From a virus (lineage: Duplodnaviria > Heunggongvirae > Uroviricota > Caudoviricetes), in the IMG/VR virus record IMGVR_UViG_2617270980_000004, positions 1 to 27,269 of that record: a DNA stretch of 27,269 nt; one strand, written 5' to 3'. Below the pieces are notes generated by a model. It was not told the DNA's origin and did no database searches. It saw only the letters and a program-made list of their open reading frames with translations. This document shows positions 2,150 to 19,955 of the stretch, in pieces. Every line of letters begins with the position of its first letter. The stretch's first letter is position 1. The position numbers and the translations under genes are program-made.

Positions 2150-2650
2150 TTAGGCGCGACGACCCTTTTGCGCAGCTAGCCATCGCGCAACGATTTCTTC
2201 AATTGATTCTTTTTTCTCCTTCATTTCCTTAAGCATTTTCTCTTTATCTTCTTTGGGGAAAGCCCTGAACGTCTGGAGCAAATCCCGCTCCATGGGGTCT
2301 ATATTAAACGGAAGTTCGTTTTCCGATTGTTCCATATCTGCAGATATAGTGACAACATTGTCCTCCCCAGATTCTTGGGGATACATCCTTACAATTTGTA
2401 ACAACTCGGCCATATCTGGTCTGATTGACTCGGGAGGAACTTGCAGCAACCCTGCGAACTTGATAACAGCCTCAAGATTTAAAGGTGTCTGACCATTTAG
2501 ATAATGGCTTACAGCTCCCTGTGTCGAAAATCCCAGAATTTCTGCCGCACGCTCTTGGGTTAACCCTAGTTGATTTTTTTTCGCCGTCCAGATTTCTTTC
2601 AGTCTCTGGGCGGCTTGCAGGTCGATCTCTGACAGGGATTTTCTTTTCAT
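2150..2650 (-). CDS. prophage repressor, XRE-family helix-turn-helix, without a LexA/S24-type autocleavage domain (CI/RacR/PaaR-like)
   Basis: HTH segment LGLTQERAAEILGFSTQGAVSHYLNG; C-terminal 90 aa are acidic/lysine-rich with no Ser-Lys peptidase dyad. Divergent from the Cro-like gene across an operator-bearing intergenic region. Confidence 0.85.
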   Translation of the reverse strand: MKRKSLSEIDLQAAQRLKEIWTAKKNQLGLTQERAAEILGFSTQGAVSHYLNGQTPLNLEAVIKFAGLLQVPPESIRPDMAELLQIVRMYPQESGEDNVVTISADMEQSENELPFNIDPMERDLLQTFRAFPKEDKEKMLKEMKEKKESIEEIVARWLAAQKGRRA

Positions 2651-10743: not shown

Positions 10744-11118
10744 ATGCTCATAGATTTGGTTTTACCTTACCCGCCGACGGTGAACACTTACTGGCGACGC
10801 CGTGGCAGCACATATTTTATCTCGGAGGAGGGAAAGCGTTATCGCCGGGCTGTGGCGCTTATTGTTCGCCAGCAGCGGCTGAAATTAAGCCTGTCCGGAA
10901 GGCTGGCGATAAAGGTGATTGCAGAGCCACCGGATAAGCGTCGTCGCGACCTGGACAATATCCTGAAAGCACCGCTGGATGCGCTGACGCATGCGGGAGT
11001 GTTAATGGACGATGAGCAGTTTGATGAAATCAATATCGTTCGTGGTCAGCCAGTATCTGGTGGACGTATGGGGGTGAAGATTTACCCCATAATGCATGAA
11101 GAGCAGGTCAAAAAATGA
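10744..11118 (+). CDS. rusA: RusA-family Holliday junction resolvase
   Basis: RusA signature: N-terminal YPPTVNTYWRRRG and PDKRRRDLDNILKAPLDALTHAGV; AAGAGGTG Shine-Dalgarno. Confidence 0.85.
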   Translation: MLIDLVLPYPPTVNTYWRRRGSTYFISEEGKRYRRAVALIVRQQRLKLSLSGRLAIKVIAEPPDKRRRDLDNILKAPLDALTHAGVLMDDEQFDEINIVRGQPVSGGRMGVKIYPIMHEEQVKK

Positions 11119-11936
11119 AACTGGAAGATTTACCGAAATACTACTCCCCAAAATCCCCTGGCCTGACCGATGCATCGGCCTCAACGTCAAAAGATGCGCT
11201 GAGTATCACTGATGTGATGGCCGCGCAGGGCATGACACAGAATCGGGCTGAGATGGGGTTTTCTGCGTTCCTGGGGAAAATGGGCATCAGTATGAATGAC
11301 AGGGCGCGGGCAACAGAATTACTGGCAGATTATGCACTCAGTCGGTGCGATCGTGTGGCGGCGTTGAGAAAACTTCCGGCAGAAATAAAACCGGTAGTGA
11401 TGCGCATTATGGCTTCGTATGCGTTTGAAGATTATGCCCGTAGCGCGGCGAGCAAAAAACAGTGCCCCTGCTGTCACGGAAAAAAATTTATTGAAAGCGA
11501 GGTTTTTACAAACAAGATCCAGTATCCGGATGGTAAGCCACCAGTGTGGGCAAAGTGCACAAAAGGCGTGTATCCGTCTTACTGGGAAGAATGGAAAAAA
11601 GTCAGGGAGGTGGTAAAAGTTGCCTGTCCGGAGTGTGGCGGAAAGGGTGAGGTTTCCACCGCCTGTAAGGATTGCCGTGGGCGTGGTGTCGCCATTCATC
11701 GTGAAGAGTCGGTAAAACGTGGTATGCCTGTTATCAGAGATTGCCAGCGTTGTGGTGGTCGTGGCTGTGAAAGGCTGCCATCAACGGAGGCATTTAATGC
11801 CATATGCAAAGTGACGAGTGCTATCACGCTTGATACGTGGAAAAAATCAGTGAAACGCTTTTACGATACGTTGGTGGTTCGGTTTGACATTGAAGAGGCA
11901 TGGGCGGAGCGGCAGTTAAAGAGGGTAACGCGATAG
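11115..11936 (+). CDS. late-gene antiterminator Q (Cys-rich zinc-finger type)
   Basis: Start overlaps the rusA stop (ATGA); multiple CxxC pairs (CPCCHGKK, CPECGGKG, CKDCRGRG, CQRCGGRG); immediately upstream of a promoter plus terminator pair. Confidence 0.8.
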   Translation: MKLEDLPKYYSPKSPGLTDASASTSKDALSITDVMAAQGMTQNRAEMGFSAFLGKMGISMNDRARATELLADYALSRCDRVAALRKLPAEIKPVVMRIMASYAFEDYARSAASKKQCPCCHGKKFIESEVFTNKIQYPDGKPPVWAKCTKGVYPSYWEEWKKVREVVKVACPECGGKGEVSTACKDCRGRGVAIHREESVKRGMPVIRDCQRCGGRGCERLPSTEAFNAICKVTSAITLDTWKKSVKRFYDTLVVRFDIEEAWAERQLKRVTR

Positions 11937-14773: not shown

Positions 14774-15109
14774 TTATGGACTTTGTTGTTTTAGCCCATA
14801 AGGACATATTTGCAGAGTGCAACGGTTATTAAAGCATTCATTCAATACGTTATCTGTATTTGTAGGGCATTCCTGGCTGTTTTTGATTAAATTCCAGAAT
14901 GTTTTATTGAATGGTACTACGTTGTAAATGGTTACAGGCAGCACTTTGTTATTGAGCATGATGCCTGTGTGAGTCAGTGTAAATATACTTTCAGGAGGTA
15001 AGAAAGCATCCGATTGATACCAGATTATTAATTTTATTTTACTCCATATGACTGAAAAAGATATTCCGCATGATGGCTGGATAACTGTATCAATCACAAT
15101 CCACTTCAT
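14774..15109 (-). CDS. hypothetical orphan protein, 111 aa, Trp/Cys-rich, AT-rich codon usage
   Basis: AAGGAAA Shine-Dalgarno 5-6 nt upstream of ATG at 15109; AT-rich promoter-like region upstream; opposite in orientation to late transcription. Confidence 0.55.
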
Positions 15110-15369
15110 TTAGTTTCCTTGTTTATGCCTTGCTGGTGATGTTCTGAAAAGTATAAATGATATTTTTGATTGTAAACCATAGAGCAGAATTATTTTTCTG
15201 ATGTTGTTTATTGTTTATTTAAATGCAGGGTGGTTTATATCTCGTCTTGTAGTTTATCCATGCATATCTGCTTGATGATGAGGTTTTTAATTAAGGTATG
15301 GTTTTGTGTTTTTTCTGTATTACATGTCAGGTATTTTAAAGAATCATTTTTCAGATGGTGGAAAGAACC

Positions 15370-17226
15370 ATGGCATTTAAACACTATGATGTTGTCAGGG
15401 CGGCGTCGCCGTCAGATCTTGCGGAAAAGCTGACACATAAACTGAAAGAGGGCTGGCAGCCGTTTGGTAGTCCGGTGGCCATAACCCCTTATACCCTGAT
15501 GCAGGCGATTGCAGCAGAAGGTGATGTGGTCGTCAGTGGTGCAACTGAGCCGGAGTGGTACTACGTCATCGTACTGGCCGGGCAATCCAATGCCATGGCT
15601 TACGGTGAAGGGCTTCCGCTTCCGGATTCTTACGATGCGCCCCACCCACGCATTAAGCAACTGGCCCGTCGCAACACAGTGACTCCCGGTGGTAAAGCAT
15701 GCGCATTTAACGACATCATTCCGGCAGACCACTGCCTGCATGATGTTCAGGATATGAGCGCACTGAATCATCCGAAGGCAGACCTGAGCAAAGGGCAGTA
15801 CGGCTGTGTCGGCCAGGGCTTACATATTGCCAAAAAACTGCTTCCGTATATCCCGAATAACGCGGGGATCCTGCTGGTACCATGCTGTCGTGGTGGTTCG
15901 GCATTCACCCAGGGCGCGGAGGGGACATTCAGTGCGGACACGGGGGCCAGCCAGGATTCGGCACGCTGGGGTGTGGGTAAACCGTTATATCAGGACCTGA
16001 TCGCACGCACCAAAGCGGCATTACAGAAGAACCCGAAAAATGTGTTGCTGGCGGTGTGCTGGATGCAGGGCGAATTTGACATGAGCGCTGCCACCTACGC
16101 ACAGCAACCGGACCTGTTCACGGCCATGCTGAAGCAGTTCCGTACTGACCTTTCCGGATTTAACGCGCAGTGCCATGGCGGCAGTGCTGCAGTTGTACCG
16201 TGGATTTGTGGCGACACGACGTATTACTGGAAAAACACATACGGCACACAGTATGACTCCGTCTACGGCGCGTACAAAAACAGGGAGAGCGACAACGTTT
16301 TCTTTGTGCCGTTCATGACCGACGGTAACGGCAACAACACGCCCACCAACTTACCGGCAGAAGACCCGGATATTGCTGATGCAGGTTATTACGGCGCGCA
16401 ATCCCGTAGTAATGGTAATTGGGTATCGTCAAATCGTCCGACACATTTCAGTTCATGGGCGCGCAGGGGCATTATTTCGGATCGCCTGGCAACCGCTATT
16501 CTGAACGCAGTTGGTCGAACCAGCGCCTTCATCAGCGGTACCGCACCGGAGATTAAACCCTCGCCCGGCGGCGACACGCCATCGGGGCCGTCTGATGGTG
16601 ACACATCCGTTCGTACAGTCTCCCTGCTGCCGACAGCCGGAGAGGCTGCTGCGCAGGGCTGGACCATCACCGGCGGCAGTGTTGCGCTGGAAGATGGTGT
16701 GTTTAAGGTTACCAAGCAGAGCAATAAAACCTGGTCCCTGATGCATCCGGTGGATGACGCGGTCTCCCTGCTGACACGGGGTGGCAGACTGAGCTGTAAG
16801 TTTCGACTGTCAGGCGCACTGACCAACAACCAGTTCGGTCTGGGAATTTATCTGTATACCGATGTAGCGTTACCTGACGTCGTGGCGATGACCGGGACTG
16901 GTAACCCGTTCCTGATGTCGTTCTTCACCCAGACCACAGACGGCAAACTGAATCTGATGCATCACAAGAAAGCCGGAAACACAAAGTTGGGCGAGTTCGG
17001 GAATTACAGTAACGACTGGCAGACGCTGGAGCTGGTGTTCACCGCCGGCAGTGCCACGGTTACTCCGAAACTGAATGGAGTGGCTGGCCCGGCATTCCAG
17101 GTCATAAAAGACAGTCTGACACTGGGGCTGAATGCGCTGACGCTGACGGATATTACCAAAAATGCAGCGTATGGCGTTGAGATAGAAAGTCTGGTGCTGG
17201 AGATAAATGCACCGGCATCATCATAA
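15370..17226 (+). CDS. NanS-p-like sialate O-acetylesterase (N-terminal DUF1737-like segment, SASA/SGNH esterase domain, C-terminal extension)
   Basis: GQSN esterase motif in VLAGQSNAMAYGEG; size and position (between the tRNA/cargo locus and the holin) match the nanS-p gene of Stx phages as I recall it. Confidence 0.8.
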   Translation: MAFKHYDVVRAASPSDLAEKLTHKLKEGWQPFGSPVAITPYTLMQAIAAEGDVVVSGATEPEWYYVIVLAGQSNAMAYGEGLPLPDSYDAPHPRIKQLARRNTVTPGGKACAFNDIIPADHCLHDVQDMSALNHPKADLSKGQYGCVGQGLHIAKKLLPYIPNNAGILLVPCCRGGSAFTQGAEGTFSADTGASQDSARWGVGKPLYQDLIARTKAALQKNPKNVLLAVCWMQGEFDMSAATYAQQPDLFTAMLKQFRTDLSGFNAQCHGGSAAVVPWICGDTTYYWKNTYGTQYDSVYGAYKNRESDNVFFVPFMTDGNGNNTPTNLPAEDPDIADAGYYGAQSRSNGNWVSSNRPTHFSSWARRGIISDRLATAILNAVGRTSAFISGTAPEIKPSPGGDTPSGPSDGDTSVRTVSLLPTAGEAAAQGWTITGGSVALEDGVFKVTKQSNKTWSLMHPVDDAVSLLTRGGRLSCKFRLSGALTNNQFGLGIYLYTDVALPDVVAMTGTGNPFLMSFFTQTTDGKLNLMHHKKAGNTKLGEFGNYSNDWQTLELVFTAGSATVTPKLNGVAGPAFQVIKDSLTLGLNALTLTDITKNAAYGVEIESLVLEINAPASS

Positions 17227-17311
17227 AAAGTGAGCCAGTCAAATGGAAGGTATCGTTAAACTCACCGGTAGTGTCAGTGGGTCGTCTGAGATGCCTGCAT
17301 GAGTTATCAGA

Positions 17312-17341
17312 GCCATCAGTACTTAACTGGTGGCTTTTTTT
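17312..17341 (+). terminator. terminator-like hairpin between the esterase gene and the holin
   Basis: Stem GCCATCAG/CTGGTGGC (one G-U pair) followed by TTTTTTT. Confidence 0.5.
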
Positions 17342-17376
17342 ATTGTTGTCAGCTTCCGGATAACGGGAGACGGGGT

Positions 17377-17592
17377 ATGTACCAGATGGAAAAAATCACA
17401 ACAGGTGTGTCATACACCACGTCAGCGGTGGGAACGGGCTACTGGTTCCTGCAGTTGCTGGACAGGGTTTCCCCGTCTCAGTGGGCGGCAATAGGCGTGC
17501 TGGGGAGTCTGCTGTTTGGGCTGCTGACATATCTGACTAACCTGTATTTCAAAATCAGAGAGGACCGTCGTAAGGCTGCACGGGGAGAGTAA
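17377..17592 (+). CDS. S: pinholin, phage 21 S-type, 71 aa, with dual-start motif MYQM
   Basis: C-terminal [40 protein letters not shown] matches S21-type pinholins by recall; GGGAGACGGGG Shine-Dalgarno; paired with a SAR endolysin downstream. Confidence 0.85.
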
Positions 17593-17596
17593 TTCA

Positions 17597-17941
17597 ATGA
17601 CTCAAAACTATGAACTGATTGTGAAAGGGATCCGCAATTTTGAGAATAAAGTTACGATAACTTTAGCGTTACGGGACAAAAAACGCTTTGACGGTGAAAT
17701 TTTTGACCTGGACATCTCGCTGGACCGTGTTGAAGGTGCCGCGCTGGAGTTTTATGAGGCAGCAGCCAGAAGGAGCATCAGACAGGTCTTCCTGGATGTT
17801 GCTGCCGGGTTATGTGAAGGGGATGAGCAGTCGCCGGAAAAGCGCCCCGTAATTTTAGAGGCGCAGGATGTGTTGATAACCTACAGAGGAAAACTACCGG
17901 GAATAATTACGGGTTCTCTGAAGAGTCCGCCGAAATGGTAA
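17597..17941 (+). CDS. YdfR-like (DUF826) protein located between holin and endolysin
   Basis: N-terminus MTQNYELIVKGIRNFENKVTITLAL resembles Qin-prophage YdfR as I recall it; starts 4 nt after the holin stop. Confidence 0.7.
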   Translation: MTQNYELIVKGIRNFENKVTITLALRDKKRFDGEIFDLDISLDRVEGAALEFYEAAARRSIRQVFLDVAAGLCEGDEQSPEKRPVILEAQDVLITYRGKLPGIITGSLKSPPKW

Positions 17942-18179
17942 TTTTACCAGCATATTTTTCATCCAGTAATACAGCAAGCCGCCTGAAAGAGTCTTGTTGT
18001 TCCTGAGACCATTTGGGATTGCATGATTCAAACTGGATTGATGCCAGCGTTGATTGCATCTGTTCCCTTGGAATTGAGAATGCCAGATATGAGAAGGCGA
18101 CGGTAAGGGTATTCACGTCTTCCCGAAGCCTGGAAATGCTGTCGAGCAACTCCTGTAGAGAAATGGTGTTATTGTCCAT
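17907..18179 (-). CDS. hypothetical 90-aa protein encoded antisense to the lysis operon
   Basis: GAGGA Shine-Dalgarno 6 nt upstream of ATG at 18179; its 3' end overlaps the 3' end of the YdfR-like gene by 35 nt. Confidence 0.45.
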   Translation of the reverse strand: MDNNTISLQELLDSISRLREDVNTLTVAFSYLAFSIPREQMQSTLASIQFESCNPKWSQEQQDSFRRLAVLLDEKYAGKITISADSSENP

Positions 18180-18284
18180 AAATAATCCTCATGATTGTAT
18201 TGACCTGTTAGCAGCCTGAGGCAACAGGCTGGAACTGATAAACATATCCAGGGCTCAGAAACCGATAAATCCTGATAAATATCC

Positions 18285-18818
18285 ATGAACGCAAAAATCA
18301 GATACGGCCTGTCGGCTGCCGTTCTGGCGCTGATTGCCGCTGGTGCGCCTGCGCCTGACATTCTCGACCAGTTTCTGGATGAAAAGGAAGGTAACCACAC
18401 CACGGCATACCGTGATGGCGCGGGTATCTGGACCATCTGCCGCGGTGCCATCCTGGTGGATGGCAAACCTGTCGTTCCGGGCATGAAGTTGTCGAAGGAA
18501 AAATGCGACCGGGTTAACGCCATTGAGCGTGATAAGGCGCTGGCATGGGTGGAGAAAAACATCAAAGTGCCATTGAGCGAACCCCAGAAAGCGGGGATCG
18601 CGTCATTCTGTCCGTACAACATTGGTCCCGGTAAGTGTTTCCCGTCGACGTTTTATAAACGAATTAATGCAGGTGATCGCAGGGGAGCGTGTGAGGCGAT
18701 TCGCTGGTGGATTAAGGACGGTGGCAGAGACTGCCGTATTCGTTCAAACAACTGCTACGGTCAGGTATCCCGTCGTGACCAGGAGAGCGCGCTGGCGTGC
18801 TGGGGTATCGACAGATAA
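18285..18818 (+). CDS. R: SAR endolysin (lysozyme R with N-terminal signal-anchor-release domain)
   Basis: N-terminal SAR-like hydrophobic segment YGLSAAVLALIAAGAPAP followed by a lysozyme core (EGNHTTAYRDGAGIWTICRG); close to phage 21/Stx-phage R by recall. Confidence 0.9.
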   Translation: MNAKIRYGLSAAVLALIAAGAPAPDILDQFLDEKEGNHTTAYRDGAGIWTICRGAILVDGKPVVPGMKLSKEKCDRVNAIERDKALAWVEKNIKVPLSEPQKAGIASFCPYNIGPGKCFPSTFYKRINAGDRRGACEAIRWWIKDGGRDCRIRSNNCYGQVSRRDQESALACWGIDR

Positions 18819-18911
18819 GCAGAATATTTTGCTGAAAAATGCGGTTTGCTTACACGGACGGATAACACGAAATCCTGCGAACTGACAAAAACTAAGTGAA
18901 TAAAAGTAAAA

Positions 18912-18947
18912 ACCCCGTTTGTTGGCAGCAAGCGGGGTTTTGTTTTT
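18912..18947 (+). terminator. rho-independent terminator immediately after the endolysin
   Basis: 10-bp stem ACCCCGTTTG/CAAGCGGGGT (one G-U pair), loop TTGGCAG, then TTTGTTTTT. Confidence 0.6.
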
Positions 18948-19012
18948 ATGGCAGTAAGCTATGGGAGGCTGCCTTGATTGATTTTAGCAAACTGATTAGG
19001 GAGTTGCGACTC

Positions 19013-19108
19013 ATGATTAGTCAATTACCAAACTGGAAATTTTTGCTGGTCTGGAGCATCCCTTTTTTATGGGTAGTATCCCAGTTAATTGTGGCAATTA
19101 AGGGGTAG
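19013..19108 (+). CDS. candidate small hydrophobic peptide A, 31 aa
   Basis: MISQLPNWKFLLVWSIPFLWVVSQLIVAIKG; GGGAG about 9 nt upstream; found by hand translation. Confidence 0.3.
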   Translation: MISQLPNWKFLLVWSIPFLWVVSQLIVAIKG

Positions 19109-19110
19109 CT

Positions 19111-19242
19111 ATGTCAGACAAACTCATAACGCCGGCAAAGGTCCTGTGTGTGATTGTCGGTATTTCATTTTCACTAATGCTGGTTGCTCTTTTTCTGTCC
19201 CTCGCCTGGGTGATGTTGTCTTCGTCGGGGCTGCTGGGGTGA
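19111..19242 (+). CDS. candidate small membrane peptide B, 43 aa
   Basis: AAGGGG Shine-Dalgarno 5 nt upstream; single predicted transmembrane helix (VLCVIVGISFSLMLVALFLSLAWVML). Confidence 0.35.
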   Translation: MSDKLITPAKVLCVIVGISFSLMLVALFLSLAWVMLSSSGLLG

Positions 19243-19361
19243 CAGTGACTGATGACATCAGCAGAGCGCTGGCTTTTGCTATTAAGTGGGTGGCTGTTGG
19301 TATTGCTGTGTCTCCGATGCTGTATGGGCTGGCAAAACTGGTCATTGCGCTGAAATCGTGA
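19239..19361 (+). CDS. candidate small membrane peptide C, 41 aa, GTG start overlapping the stop of B (GTGA)
   Basis: Hydrophobic RALAFAIKWVAVGIAV... resembles peptide D; start and stop are coupled with B. Confidence 0.3.
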   Translation: MTVTDDISRALAFAIKWVAVGIAVSPMLYGLAKLVIALKS

Positions 19362-19372
19362 ACTTTAAAAAG

Positions 19373-19459
19373 ATGAGTGCTGAACTTATTCGGGCAATGG
19401 CATTTGCCATTCGTATTGTGGCCATTGCTGTTCTGGTCTGGGCAATCCGTTGGTGGTGA
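19373..19459 (+). CDS. candidate small membrane peptide D, 28 aa, paralogous to C
   Basis: [28 protein letters not shown]; ends 1 nt before the Rz start codon. Confidence 0.3.
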
Positions 19460-19460
19460 T

Positions 19461-19955
19461 ATGAACCGTGTTCTGTGTGTGGTGATTATTGTCATGCTGG
19501 TAGCCTGTGGTGTGCTTAGTCTGGGGCTGAATCATTACCGCGATAACGCCATCACCTACAAAGCGCAGCGCGATAAAAAAGTCAGTGAGCTGAAACTGGC
19601 GAATGCCACTATTACTGACATGCAGCAGCGCCAGCGAGATGTCGCTGCGCTTGATGCCAGATACACGAAGGAATTAGCCGATGCGAGAGCTGAAAATGAA
19701 ACTCTGCGCGCTGATGTTGCCGCTGGTCGTAAGCGCCTGCGGGTCAACGCCACCTGCCCCGGTACCGTGCGTGAAGCCACCGGCACCTCCAGCGTGGATA
19801 ATGCAACCGGCCCCCGACTGGCAGACACCGCTGAACGGGATTATTTCATCCTCAGAGAACGGTTGATGACAATGCAGAAGCAGCTGGAAGGGGCGCAGGA
19901 ATATATCCGCACTCAGTGCACTAAGCTGGCTTTTTATTATCCGGAGGATACATGA
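19461..19955 (+). CDS. Rz: Rz i-spanin
   Basis: N-terminal transmembrane helix followed by coiled coil; [16 protein letters not shown]... and [23 protein letters not shown] resemble Stx-phage/lambda Rz by recall; embedded Rz1 in the +1 frame. Confidence 0.85.
19681..19866 (+). CDS. Rz1: Rz1 o-spanin lipoprotein, embedded within Rz
   Basis: Lipobox LVVSAC and proline-rich [27 protein letters not shown], very close to lambda Rz1 as recalled. Confidence 0.8.

Follow-up and report, generated by a model that had tools for sequence, protein, structure and literature searches.

What is a small gene doing on the minus strand of a lambdoid lysis cassette, set against the late operon around it? The question is raised by a stretch of 27,269 nucleotides (nt) of phage DNA (IMG/VR record IMGVR_UViG_2617270980_000004, positions 1 to 27,269; hereafter the window), which is a lambdoid Escherichia coli prophage oriented as its late operon runs. 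Between its holin and endolysin genes stand a forward ydfR-like gene and, converging on it, a 90-amino-acid (aa) open reading frame (ORF), hereafter the 90-aa gene (Table 1). All late genes lie on the plus strand, so this gene faces late transcription; the first-pass annotation, made from the letters of the window, had proposed as much, and our analysis finds a genuine gene opposed to Q-dependent late transcription. On balance we favor the reading that it is an accessory cassette gene forming a two-gene module with a motif-bearing forward partner, in which the 90-aa product would be made in the lysogen and neutralized by the partner.

That the 90-aa ORF is a real gene is almost certain. Its product matches phrog_2411 over residues 1-90 of 90 (E=1.1e-58) and is a member of PHROG 2411, and an identical protein is present in RefSeq (WP_000369850.1), where many genomes carry it under the label ‘hypothetical protein’ given by the Prokaryotic Genome Annotation Pipeline (PGAP). 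Among 5.8 billion proteins searched, 62 relatives turned up, most of them exactly 90 aa long and 71-99% identical. Citrobacter holds shorter in-frame variants, insertions and deletions (indels) in more distant family members stay in frame, and several genera hold homologues whose identity is as low as about 30%. For pairs drawn from five alleles, two of them only about 60% identical in amino acids, the ratio of non-synonymous to synonymous substitution rates (dN/dS) lies between 0.12 and 0.39, and the 90-aa frame is the sole one of the six that is open in all alleles. This pattern indicates that purifying selection acts on the gene at the protein level. A chance open frame, a decaying pseudogene or an annotation artefact would agree with the lack of any significant Pfam or NCBIfam family for the protein, with the lack of a detectable promoter and with the frameshifted or truncated state of some variants. 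Such an origin is nevertheless very improbable given the constant length, the in-frame indels, the single conserved frame and the spread of homologues, and the substitution pattern, with dN/dS well below 1, effectively refutes it.

The cassette carrying the gene is present in 1221 of the 5426 complete E. coli genomes, where its alleles fall into three classes with >=99%, about 85% and about 72% identity, and in only 3 of the 370 GenBank phage records sharing this lysis cassette. Carriers include E. coli B ATCC 11303 (in a Rac remnant), NCTC86, and the phages vB_EcoS-783R2 and Chlobot. Viral-contig scans using distant family members mostly gave no match, and a scan of genome contigs yielded only two loci. 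A literature search for ybl58 and WP_000369850 found no report. The gene is already public as a hypothetical protein, and the description of its slot, module and motif is new.

Comparison with collinear phages makes it very likely that an accessory cassette in a variable slot carries the gene. Relative to phage vB_EcoS-640R1, homology covers the holin and ydfR as far as about 17936, stops, and sets in again at about 18231; between these points that phage has 21 nt and the window 294 nt. The 294-nt indel holds most of the minus-strand gene and its 5’ region, and its guanine-plus-cytosine (GC) content is 44.2%, the holin having 53.5% and R 55.2%. Stx2 phage 86 shows the same two junctions, with an extended YdfR of 268 aa and an unrelated backward gene of 104 aa, and in the Qin prophage of K-12 the slot is compact, ydfR abutting rrrQ. 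We then ran the two flanks as a query against all complete E. coli genomes and told the slot states apart by span length. At least six states were found in E. coli, among them the empty slot, this cassette, and a YdfR either extended (148, 183 or 296 aa) or cut (104 aa). Four other small backward genes occupy the slot (phrog_2572, 18136, 21218 and 1853), all acidic and soluble and mutually unrelated by BLASTP, so that with the 90-aa gene included five slot states carry mutually unrelated, anti-oriented small acidic genes. The gene is present or absent between collinear phages and its base composition is unlike that of its neighbors, as in morons; taken together, the indel polymorphism, the varied cargos and the low GC mean that the slot behaves as a moron hot spot. 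The other slot cargos are known from E. coli prophages and Stx2 phage 86 (loci L013, L014, L015, L016 and L002), and two of them (L013, L015) have minus-strand terminator-like sites. The extended YdfRs are called truncated pseudogenes by PGAP though their ORFs are open.

The position of the cassette accounts for the overlap between the two genes. The annotated 35-nt convergent overlap is exact, both ORFs sharing their 3’ ends, and it arises because the tail of the 90-aa protein reads across the left cassette junction into the last ydfR codons until a stop. In relatives the overlap measures 14, 7 or 20 nt, or is missing, and the region encodes the disordered, least conserved tail of the 90-aa protein. 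The first-pass annotation had stressed that a minus-strand transcript would be antisense to the 3’ end of the YdfR-like message; the overlap that this needs exists, but its variable length and the selection at the protein level leave the emphasis weak. More broadly, the pair might act as RNA, convergent transcription or antisense pairing regulating ydfR or downstream lysis genes, for example by shielding R/Rz from leaky late transcription in the lysogen, with the protein secondary. The conserved orientation and the five unrelated small genes that all lie backward in the slot would suit such action, and Q expression lowers TaiEcA in phage phi80 (see below), so convergent late transcription can matter. 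We consider it improbable: besides the purifying selection on the protein and the inconstant overlap, orphan copies remain intact at sites that offer no antisense target, Rfam gave no match over 17000-19600, and no significant structure was found, the 3’-end folds being no better than shuffles.

The evidence for a functional tie lies in the forward partner. The YdfR-like protein of the window scores 143.8 bits against PF07041 (cut-off 25), which makes it a DUF1327 protein, and it also matches phrog_406 along its full length. It ends in the motif G-K-[LI]-x4-I-T-G-S-L-K-x-P-P, and the same motif ends the forward partner strictly in five phage contexts (E. coli, Citrobacter and three metagenomic or Atlantibacter ones) and partially in one (Table 1). 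In each phage context inspected, the family member and a forward gene converge, even where identity has fallen to about 36-40%. N-terminally the partners are unrelated, with DUF1327 in one and short coiled coils in others; the Citrobacter partner has no DUF1327 by Pfam or BLASTP, and only its last roughly 12 codons match. Different codons are used for the motif throughout, which places its conservation at the protein level and in the partner’s frame. The 213 kb of collected loci yield 602 distinct six-frame ORFs; a regular expression for the motif matched the last 28 residues of 11 of them, all 11 being convergent partners or the YdfR of an empty slot; internal matches occurred only in extended YdfRs, with zero background in 602-626 six-frame ORFs. 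A forward partner was present in 6/6 phage contexts and 0/7 non-phage contexts (Fisher’s exact test, p about 6e-4, the samples being small and non-random). In an AlphaFold2 model of the YdfR-like protein, residues 1-73 are folded (three strands and a helix) and residues 72-114 have a predicted local distance difference test score (pLDDT) below 50. The motif thus falls in a low-confidence, probably disordered tail after a folded domain, as expected of a short binding motif. From these observations we think it likely that the 90-aa gene and a motif-bearing partner make up a conserved convergent module.

The association runs in one direction. The 90-aa ORF is not conserved wherever ydfR-like genes occur, a distribution that the first-pass annotation had raised, since it is missing beside ydfR in K-12 Qin, in O157-type prophages and in the ‘empty slot’ forms of 116 aa. 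The converse does hold: in the contexts inspected, phage-borne copies of the 90-aa ORF always face a partner with the YdfR C-terminal motif, partial in one copy (L026). The small tail-operon partner has no occurrence among GenBank phages. K-12 YdfR uses its first 72 residues to bind RNase E in the catalytic N-terminal half of that enzyme (two-hybrid, pull-down) and possibly binds RNA too (PMC13232886); it has neither the motif nor a backward gene. In a Citrobacter meridianamericanus prophage (L010 6087-7847), a HicA/HicB toxin-antitoxin pair adjoins the module copy and the same segment holds a gene for a pertussis-toxin-S1-like ADP-ribosyltransferase, so accessory genes cluster upstream of that phage’s lysis cassette.

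Table 1. Position of the features discussed, in window coordinates unless a locus is named; C-termini of forward partners are given up to the stop codon.
Feature	Position	Strand	Remark
cI-like repressor	2150-2650	-	
Q antiterminator	11115-11936		
iraM-like (anti-adaptor) gene	14774-15109	-	backward, late region; name from annotation of a 99.9% identical relative
NanS-p-type esterase	15355-17226		
Class II (P21 S-type) holin gene	17378-17592	+	first of lysis cassette; PF04971 E=2.3e-32
ydfR-like gene, 114 aa	17597-17941	+	DUF1327 N-terminal domain and C-terminal tail; PF07041 E=2e-42
Coding region of YdfR C-terminal motif GKLPGIITGSLKSPP	17888-17932	+	
90-aa gene, PHROG 2411 family	17907-18179	-	between holin and endolysin R
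35-nt 3’-3’ overlap of ydfR-like and 90-aa genes	17907-17941	both	
294-nt low-GC cassette (indel)	17937-18230		most of minus-strand gene and its 5’ region
Shine-Dalgarno GAGGA	18186-18190	-	6 nt before ATG
TACAAT, sole conserved -10-like box	18194-18199	-	abuts GGTCAA
TTGACC hexamer	18200-18205	+	reads GGTCAA on the strand of the 90-aa gene
Inverted repeat CAGCCTG-AGGCAA-CAGGCTG	18212-18231		right cassette junction; CAGCCTG 18212-18218, CAGGCTG 18225-18231
Endolysin R (phage lysozyme)	18285-18818	+	late-operon neighbor downstream; PF00959 E=5.5e-24, phrog_7
Second low-GC insert (44.6%)	18819-19376		in lysis cassette, between R and Rz
ORF in second insert	18896-19108		small, hydrophobic; phrog_6632
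Terminator-like hairpin in second insert	18909-18941	+	strong
ORF in second insert	19111-19242		small, hydrophobic; phrog_4906
iha-adjacent slot fossil with intact copy, E. coli F11 chromosome	L006 2946-3349		upstream of virulence gene iha
Serratia chromosomal homologues	L111 3001-3282; L019 4001-4279		
Partner in window, holin-endolysin slot			YdfR-like, 114 aa; C-terminus ...YRGKLPGIITGSLKSPPKW
Partner in Citrobacter, upstream of unrelated holin/CHAP/DUF2514 lysis cassette			238 aa; C-terminus ...IEGKIRNEKITGSLRVPMKL
Partner between tail genes M and L of an Atlantibacter-type prophage			71 aa, facing an 88-aa family member; C-terminus ...IKGNIFSDQIFGDLKKPPSY
Partner in prophage contig, after tail gene I			77 aa; C-terminus ...IQGMVYIEKISGDLIKIPI
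Partner in lambdoid contig, near terminase			62 aa; C-terminus ...IKGGQLRYKRLTGDILIPLES
Partner in second M-L context (L026)			60 aa; C-terminus ...REGKLILRDGSLVSF; partial motif

Copies outside phages bear on the same issue. An intact 90-aa copy, 57% identical, lies beside the adhesin/siderophore receptor gene iha among insertion sequence (IS) remnants in 60 complete genomes including SMS-3-5. Homology at this locus takes in the ORF together with its upstream region, as well as the initial 23 nt of R, which marks it as a fossil of the same lysis-cassette slot. A 92-aa copy stands beside an autotransporter gene on the IncF plasmid pE21845IncF. Profile searches extend the family to members at about 30-40% identity: homologues in Serratia, Chania, Gibbsiella and Chimaeribacter occupy the core chromosome between dinI and bssS, and a further branch occurs in Sodalis and Acerihabitans. 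The dinI-bssS homologue is a separate unit downstream of the dinI terminator, and this position places the Serratia homologue outside the SOS-controlled dinI transcript. Since these copies outside phages have no partner, the 90-aa protein can work alone in a bacterial cell. The Serratia homologue also lies three genes from rne, and YdfR, the partner in phages, is reported to bind RNase E (PMC13232886); this proximity is probably coincidental.

The 90-aa gene might accordingly be a moron in its own right, functionally unconnected with ydfR, a modulator of host physiology like IraM, DinI or BssS-type regulators, captured from or donated to enterobacterial chromosomes and serving the host, its partner being kept by physical interlock. 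The many Serratia species with a separate unit between dinI and bssS, the Sodalis/Acerihabitans branch, and the intact orphans near iha and on the IncF plasmid all speak for such a gene, as does the presence in the window of another backward accessory gene, the iraM-like gene upstream of nanS-p. This alternative deserves attention, although we hold it the less probable account: the motif pairing survives at least four late-operon positions and divergence to about 36-40% identity, and linkage alone leaves selection on the partner motif unexplained.

The flanking sequence bears on how the backward gene would be expressed. The GAGGA ribosome binding site of the first-pass annotation is present and is kept in 4/5 aligned alleles, the IncF-plasmid allele having a weaker GATGA in its place. 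The TTGACC hexamer, put forward as an upstream promoter element, fared otherwise: it lies on the plus strand about 20 nt from the ATG of the minus-strand gene, and for both reasons cannot be its -35 box. The -10-like box takes the form ATACAAT in two alleles and GACAAT in another; the iha-island copy has a perfect TATAAT, set off from the Shine-Dalgarno sequence by 4 extra nt. As a promoter element TACAAT is doubtful because it is too near the Shine-Dalgarno sequence, and reading of the sequence 16-18 nt from it revealed no acceptable -35 box, nor did the consensus scan find a site. A search by eye of the minus strand in the conserved right flank (18232-18300) gave only matches of the 7/12 type, from which we claim no promoter, and reading upstream of the 90-aa ORF found no LexA box. 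The hairpin that the annotation had placed upstream does exist as an inverted repeat, partly conserved in other alleles, but its folding is not significant (z = -1.5 to -1.8, with 10-19 of 200 shuffles equal). A promoter-like TTATCA-16-TAAAAT (9/12) at 17852-17879 on the minus strand, inside ydfR and past the stop of the 90-aa gene, would drive RNA antisense to mid-ydfR; it is no better than chance expectation.

The 90-aa product is predicted to be small and cytoplasmic, built of three helices followed by a disordered, dispensable tail. It is acidic (isoelectric point 4.5), has a grand average of hydropathy (GRAVY) of -0.43 and no transmembrane segment, its maximum 19-residue Kyte-Doolittle mean being 0.75. 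The AlphaFold2 model, built with 19 homologues, places helices at residues 8-35, 38-52 and 59-77 (mean pLDDT 71) and leaves residues 79-90 disordered. Homology and structure prediction, which the first-pass annotation had proposed as a check, yielded a full-length PHROG 2411 assignment and a three-helix model, but no informative fold match; sequence searches of the PDB with the family profile, YdfR and two small partners gave no match. A weak match to the anti-silencing protein Mip (E=0.037 over 15 residues) was discarded. A type II toxin-antitoxin module was also rejected, the genes being convergent and not co-directional, with no match to a toxin-antitoxin family in Pfam, NCBIfam or PADLOC. 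One tail-operon family member (L028 115-420) has an in-frame TAG after codon 64, beyond which the family’s third helix continues in frame; either recent pseudogenization or read-through would account for this.

The module has the layout of a non-contiguous operon, a backward gene interrupting a lytic operon next to a co-conserved forward gene, and this layout has precedents. In phi80, taiEcA (orf63) lies on the opposite strand, interrupts the Q operon, is made in the lysogen and is lowered by Q, while the adjacent forward gene atiEcA (orf64) neutralizes TaiEcA, binding having been shown for the TaiSalB/AtiSalB versions; ati-like genes are found only in prophages, and Tai alone occurs in satellites (PMC11364771). 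The window resembles Tai/Ati in having a backward gene that interrupts a Q-controlled late operon beside a small forward late gene, in the closeness of the pair to lysis and packaging genes, and in a partner restricted to prophage-borne copies with stand-alone backward genes elsewhere. The split between paired phage copies and partner-less copies elsewhere fits Tai/Ati logic. The differences are that TaiEcA has 204 aa and not 90, that the phi80 genes diverge and overlap at their 5’ ends whereas those of the window converge and overlap at their 3’ ends, and that AtiEcA is a demonstrated neutralizer whereas the motif-bearing protein here is a candidate one. Homology to TaiEcA/AtiEcA was rejected for want of sequence similarity. 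In the TERi system of Listeria phage phi10403S, the 65-aa TerI is encoded on the opposite strand in the lytic operon by a gene that overlaps a forward gene; TerI is transcribed constitutively in the lysogen, and the forward anti-TerI1/2 neutralise it on induction (bioRxiv 10.1101/2025.02.27.640495); the Tha/Ith and Tab systems are grouped with TERi here. The small backward gene overlapping a forward gene in a lytic operon is common to both; TERi differs in its host phylum, in lying in an early and not a late module, in its target, the terminase, and in having no homology to the pair described here. With low to moderate probability, judged by analogy, we file the pair as working like the Tai/Ati, Tha/Ith and TERi systems, not as a member of them.

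Two other groups are looser analogues than these pairs. The bor/iss and iraM morons share presence or absence in collinear phages, lower GC and orientation against late transcription, and bor/iss lies two genes from the position of the 90-aa gene in relatives. Bor and Lom, however, are envelope proteins with known promoters, whereas the 90-aa protein is cytoplasmic and its gene without a recognizable promoter or terminator; and the 90-aa gene, unlike bor/iss and iraM, has a co-conserved forward partner. Operons of pore-forming colicins likewise place a small backward gene and then a lysis gene after an induced forward gene whose C-terminal end is variable, and orphan copies of the backward immunity gene occur elsewhere (PMC4436062). 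Colicin immunity proteins are integral to the membrane, though, whereas the 90-aa protein is soluble and not homologous to them, and YdfR is not known as toxic. An identity as an opposite-strand colicin immunity protein was rejected, the 90-aa protein having no hydrophobic segment.

Module architecture and the Tai/Ati, Tha/Ith and TERi precedents lead us to the following working model. A cassette of roughly 300 bp would have inserted against Q-dependent late transcription, into the polymorphic slot that separates the endolysin gene from the 3’ end of the ydfR-like gene. The backward gene may be transcribed alone and independently of Q, and hence be made in the lysogen, where its product would act by binding a protein. 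After induction, late transcription would run antisense through the backward gene and yield the forward partner, whose C-terminal motif is the best candidate for a ligand or neutralizer of the 90-aa protein. A promoter of its own, lysogenic expression, binding of both proteins and an anti-phage or regulatory role are what we infer from this arrangement. Expression in the lysogen, which the first-pass annotation had also supposed, seems somewhat more probable than silence, by analogy with these systems. A role as effector and neutralizer, or as defense and counter-defense, is a tentative and rather unlikely suggestion drawn from the same analogies. Its most specific form is a new system in which the 90-aa protein, made in lysogens and from orphan copies on islands, plasmids and chromosomes, would keep incoming lambdoid phages from carrying out a late function; the resident phage would escape on induction, when its late operon provides the partner and the disordered C-terminal motif binds the effector; this we regard as speculative and, if anything, less likely still.

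Several observations weigh against the module and its proposed working. Stand-alone chromosomal members exist in Serratia and Sodalis, most motif-bearing YdfRs (the 116-aa forms) have no backward gene, and in one context whose origin is unknown (L024/L025) the convergent neighbor lacks the motif. Tight linkage through overlapping 3’ ends could by itself keep both genes together, and frameshifts or truncations affect a few per cent of the sequence variants. A consensus scan found neither a sigma-70-like promoter upstream of the 90-aa ORF nor an intrinsic terminator after it, and in the window allele a transcript from TACAAT would lose the Shine-Dalgarno sequence. PADLOC gave no match to the 90-aa protein, Foldseek of its AlphaFold2 model against PDB and BFVD returned nothing with E<0.5, and BLASTP and hidden Markov model comparisons with phi80 orf63-66 reached a best E of 0.02 over short segments only. 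With these points counted, the two-gene module with lysogenic expression and neutralization is still the account that we lean towards.

The remainder of the window is that of a lambdoid prophage. It carries, in addition to the regulators in Table 1, RusA, a DNA methylase and two tRNAs, and the order continues with the iraM-like gene, the NanS-p-type esterase, the lysis cassette, an HNH gene and terminase. The iraM-like product has no Pfam match. In relatives, the holin counterpart is a 216-nt coding sequence labeled ‘class II holin family protein’ and the equivalents of endolysin R are annotated rrrQ/lysozyme; on reading only, the N-terminus of R looks like a signal-anchor-release segment. The lysis cassette contains a second low-GC insert between R and Rz, which opens with the terminator-like hairpin and encodes two small hydrophobic ORFs; the gap from R to Rz is shorter or absent in close relatives.

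Roughly a fifth of complete E. coli genomes hold the 90-aa gene, annotated as hypothetical, and in Stx-type and related lambdoid prophages it lies in the lysis cassette beside a relative of the RNase E-binding YdfR. The outcome for this gene is a defined cassette in a variable slot, a two-gene module marked by a motif, and a split between paired and partner-less copies. If the pattern of a defense pair is true, the slot would be a new place to seek such systems in lambdoid phages; if it is false, the 90-aa gene would be one more ordinary moron.

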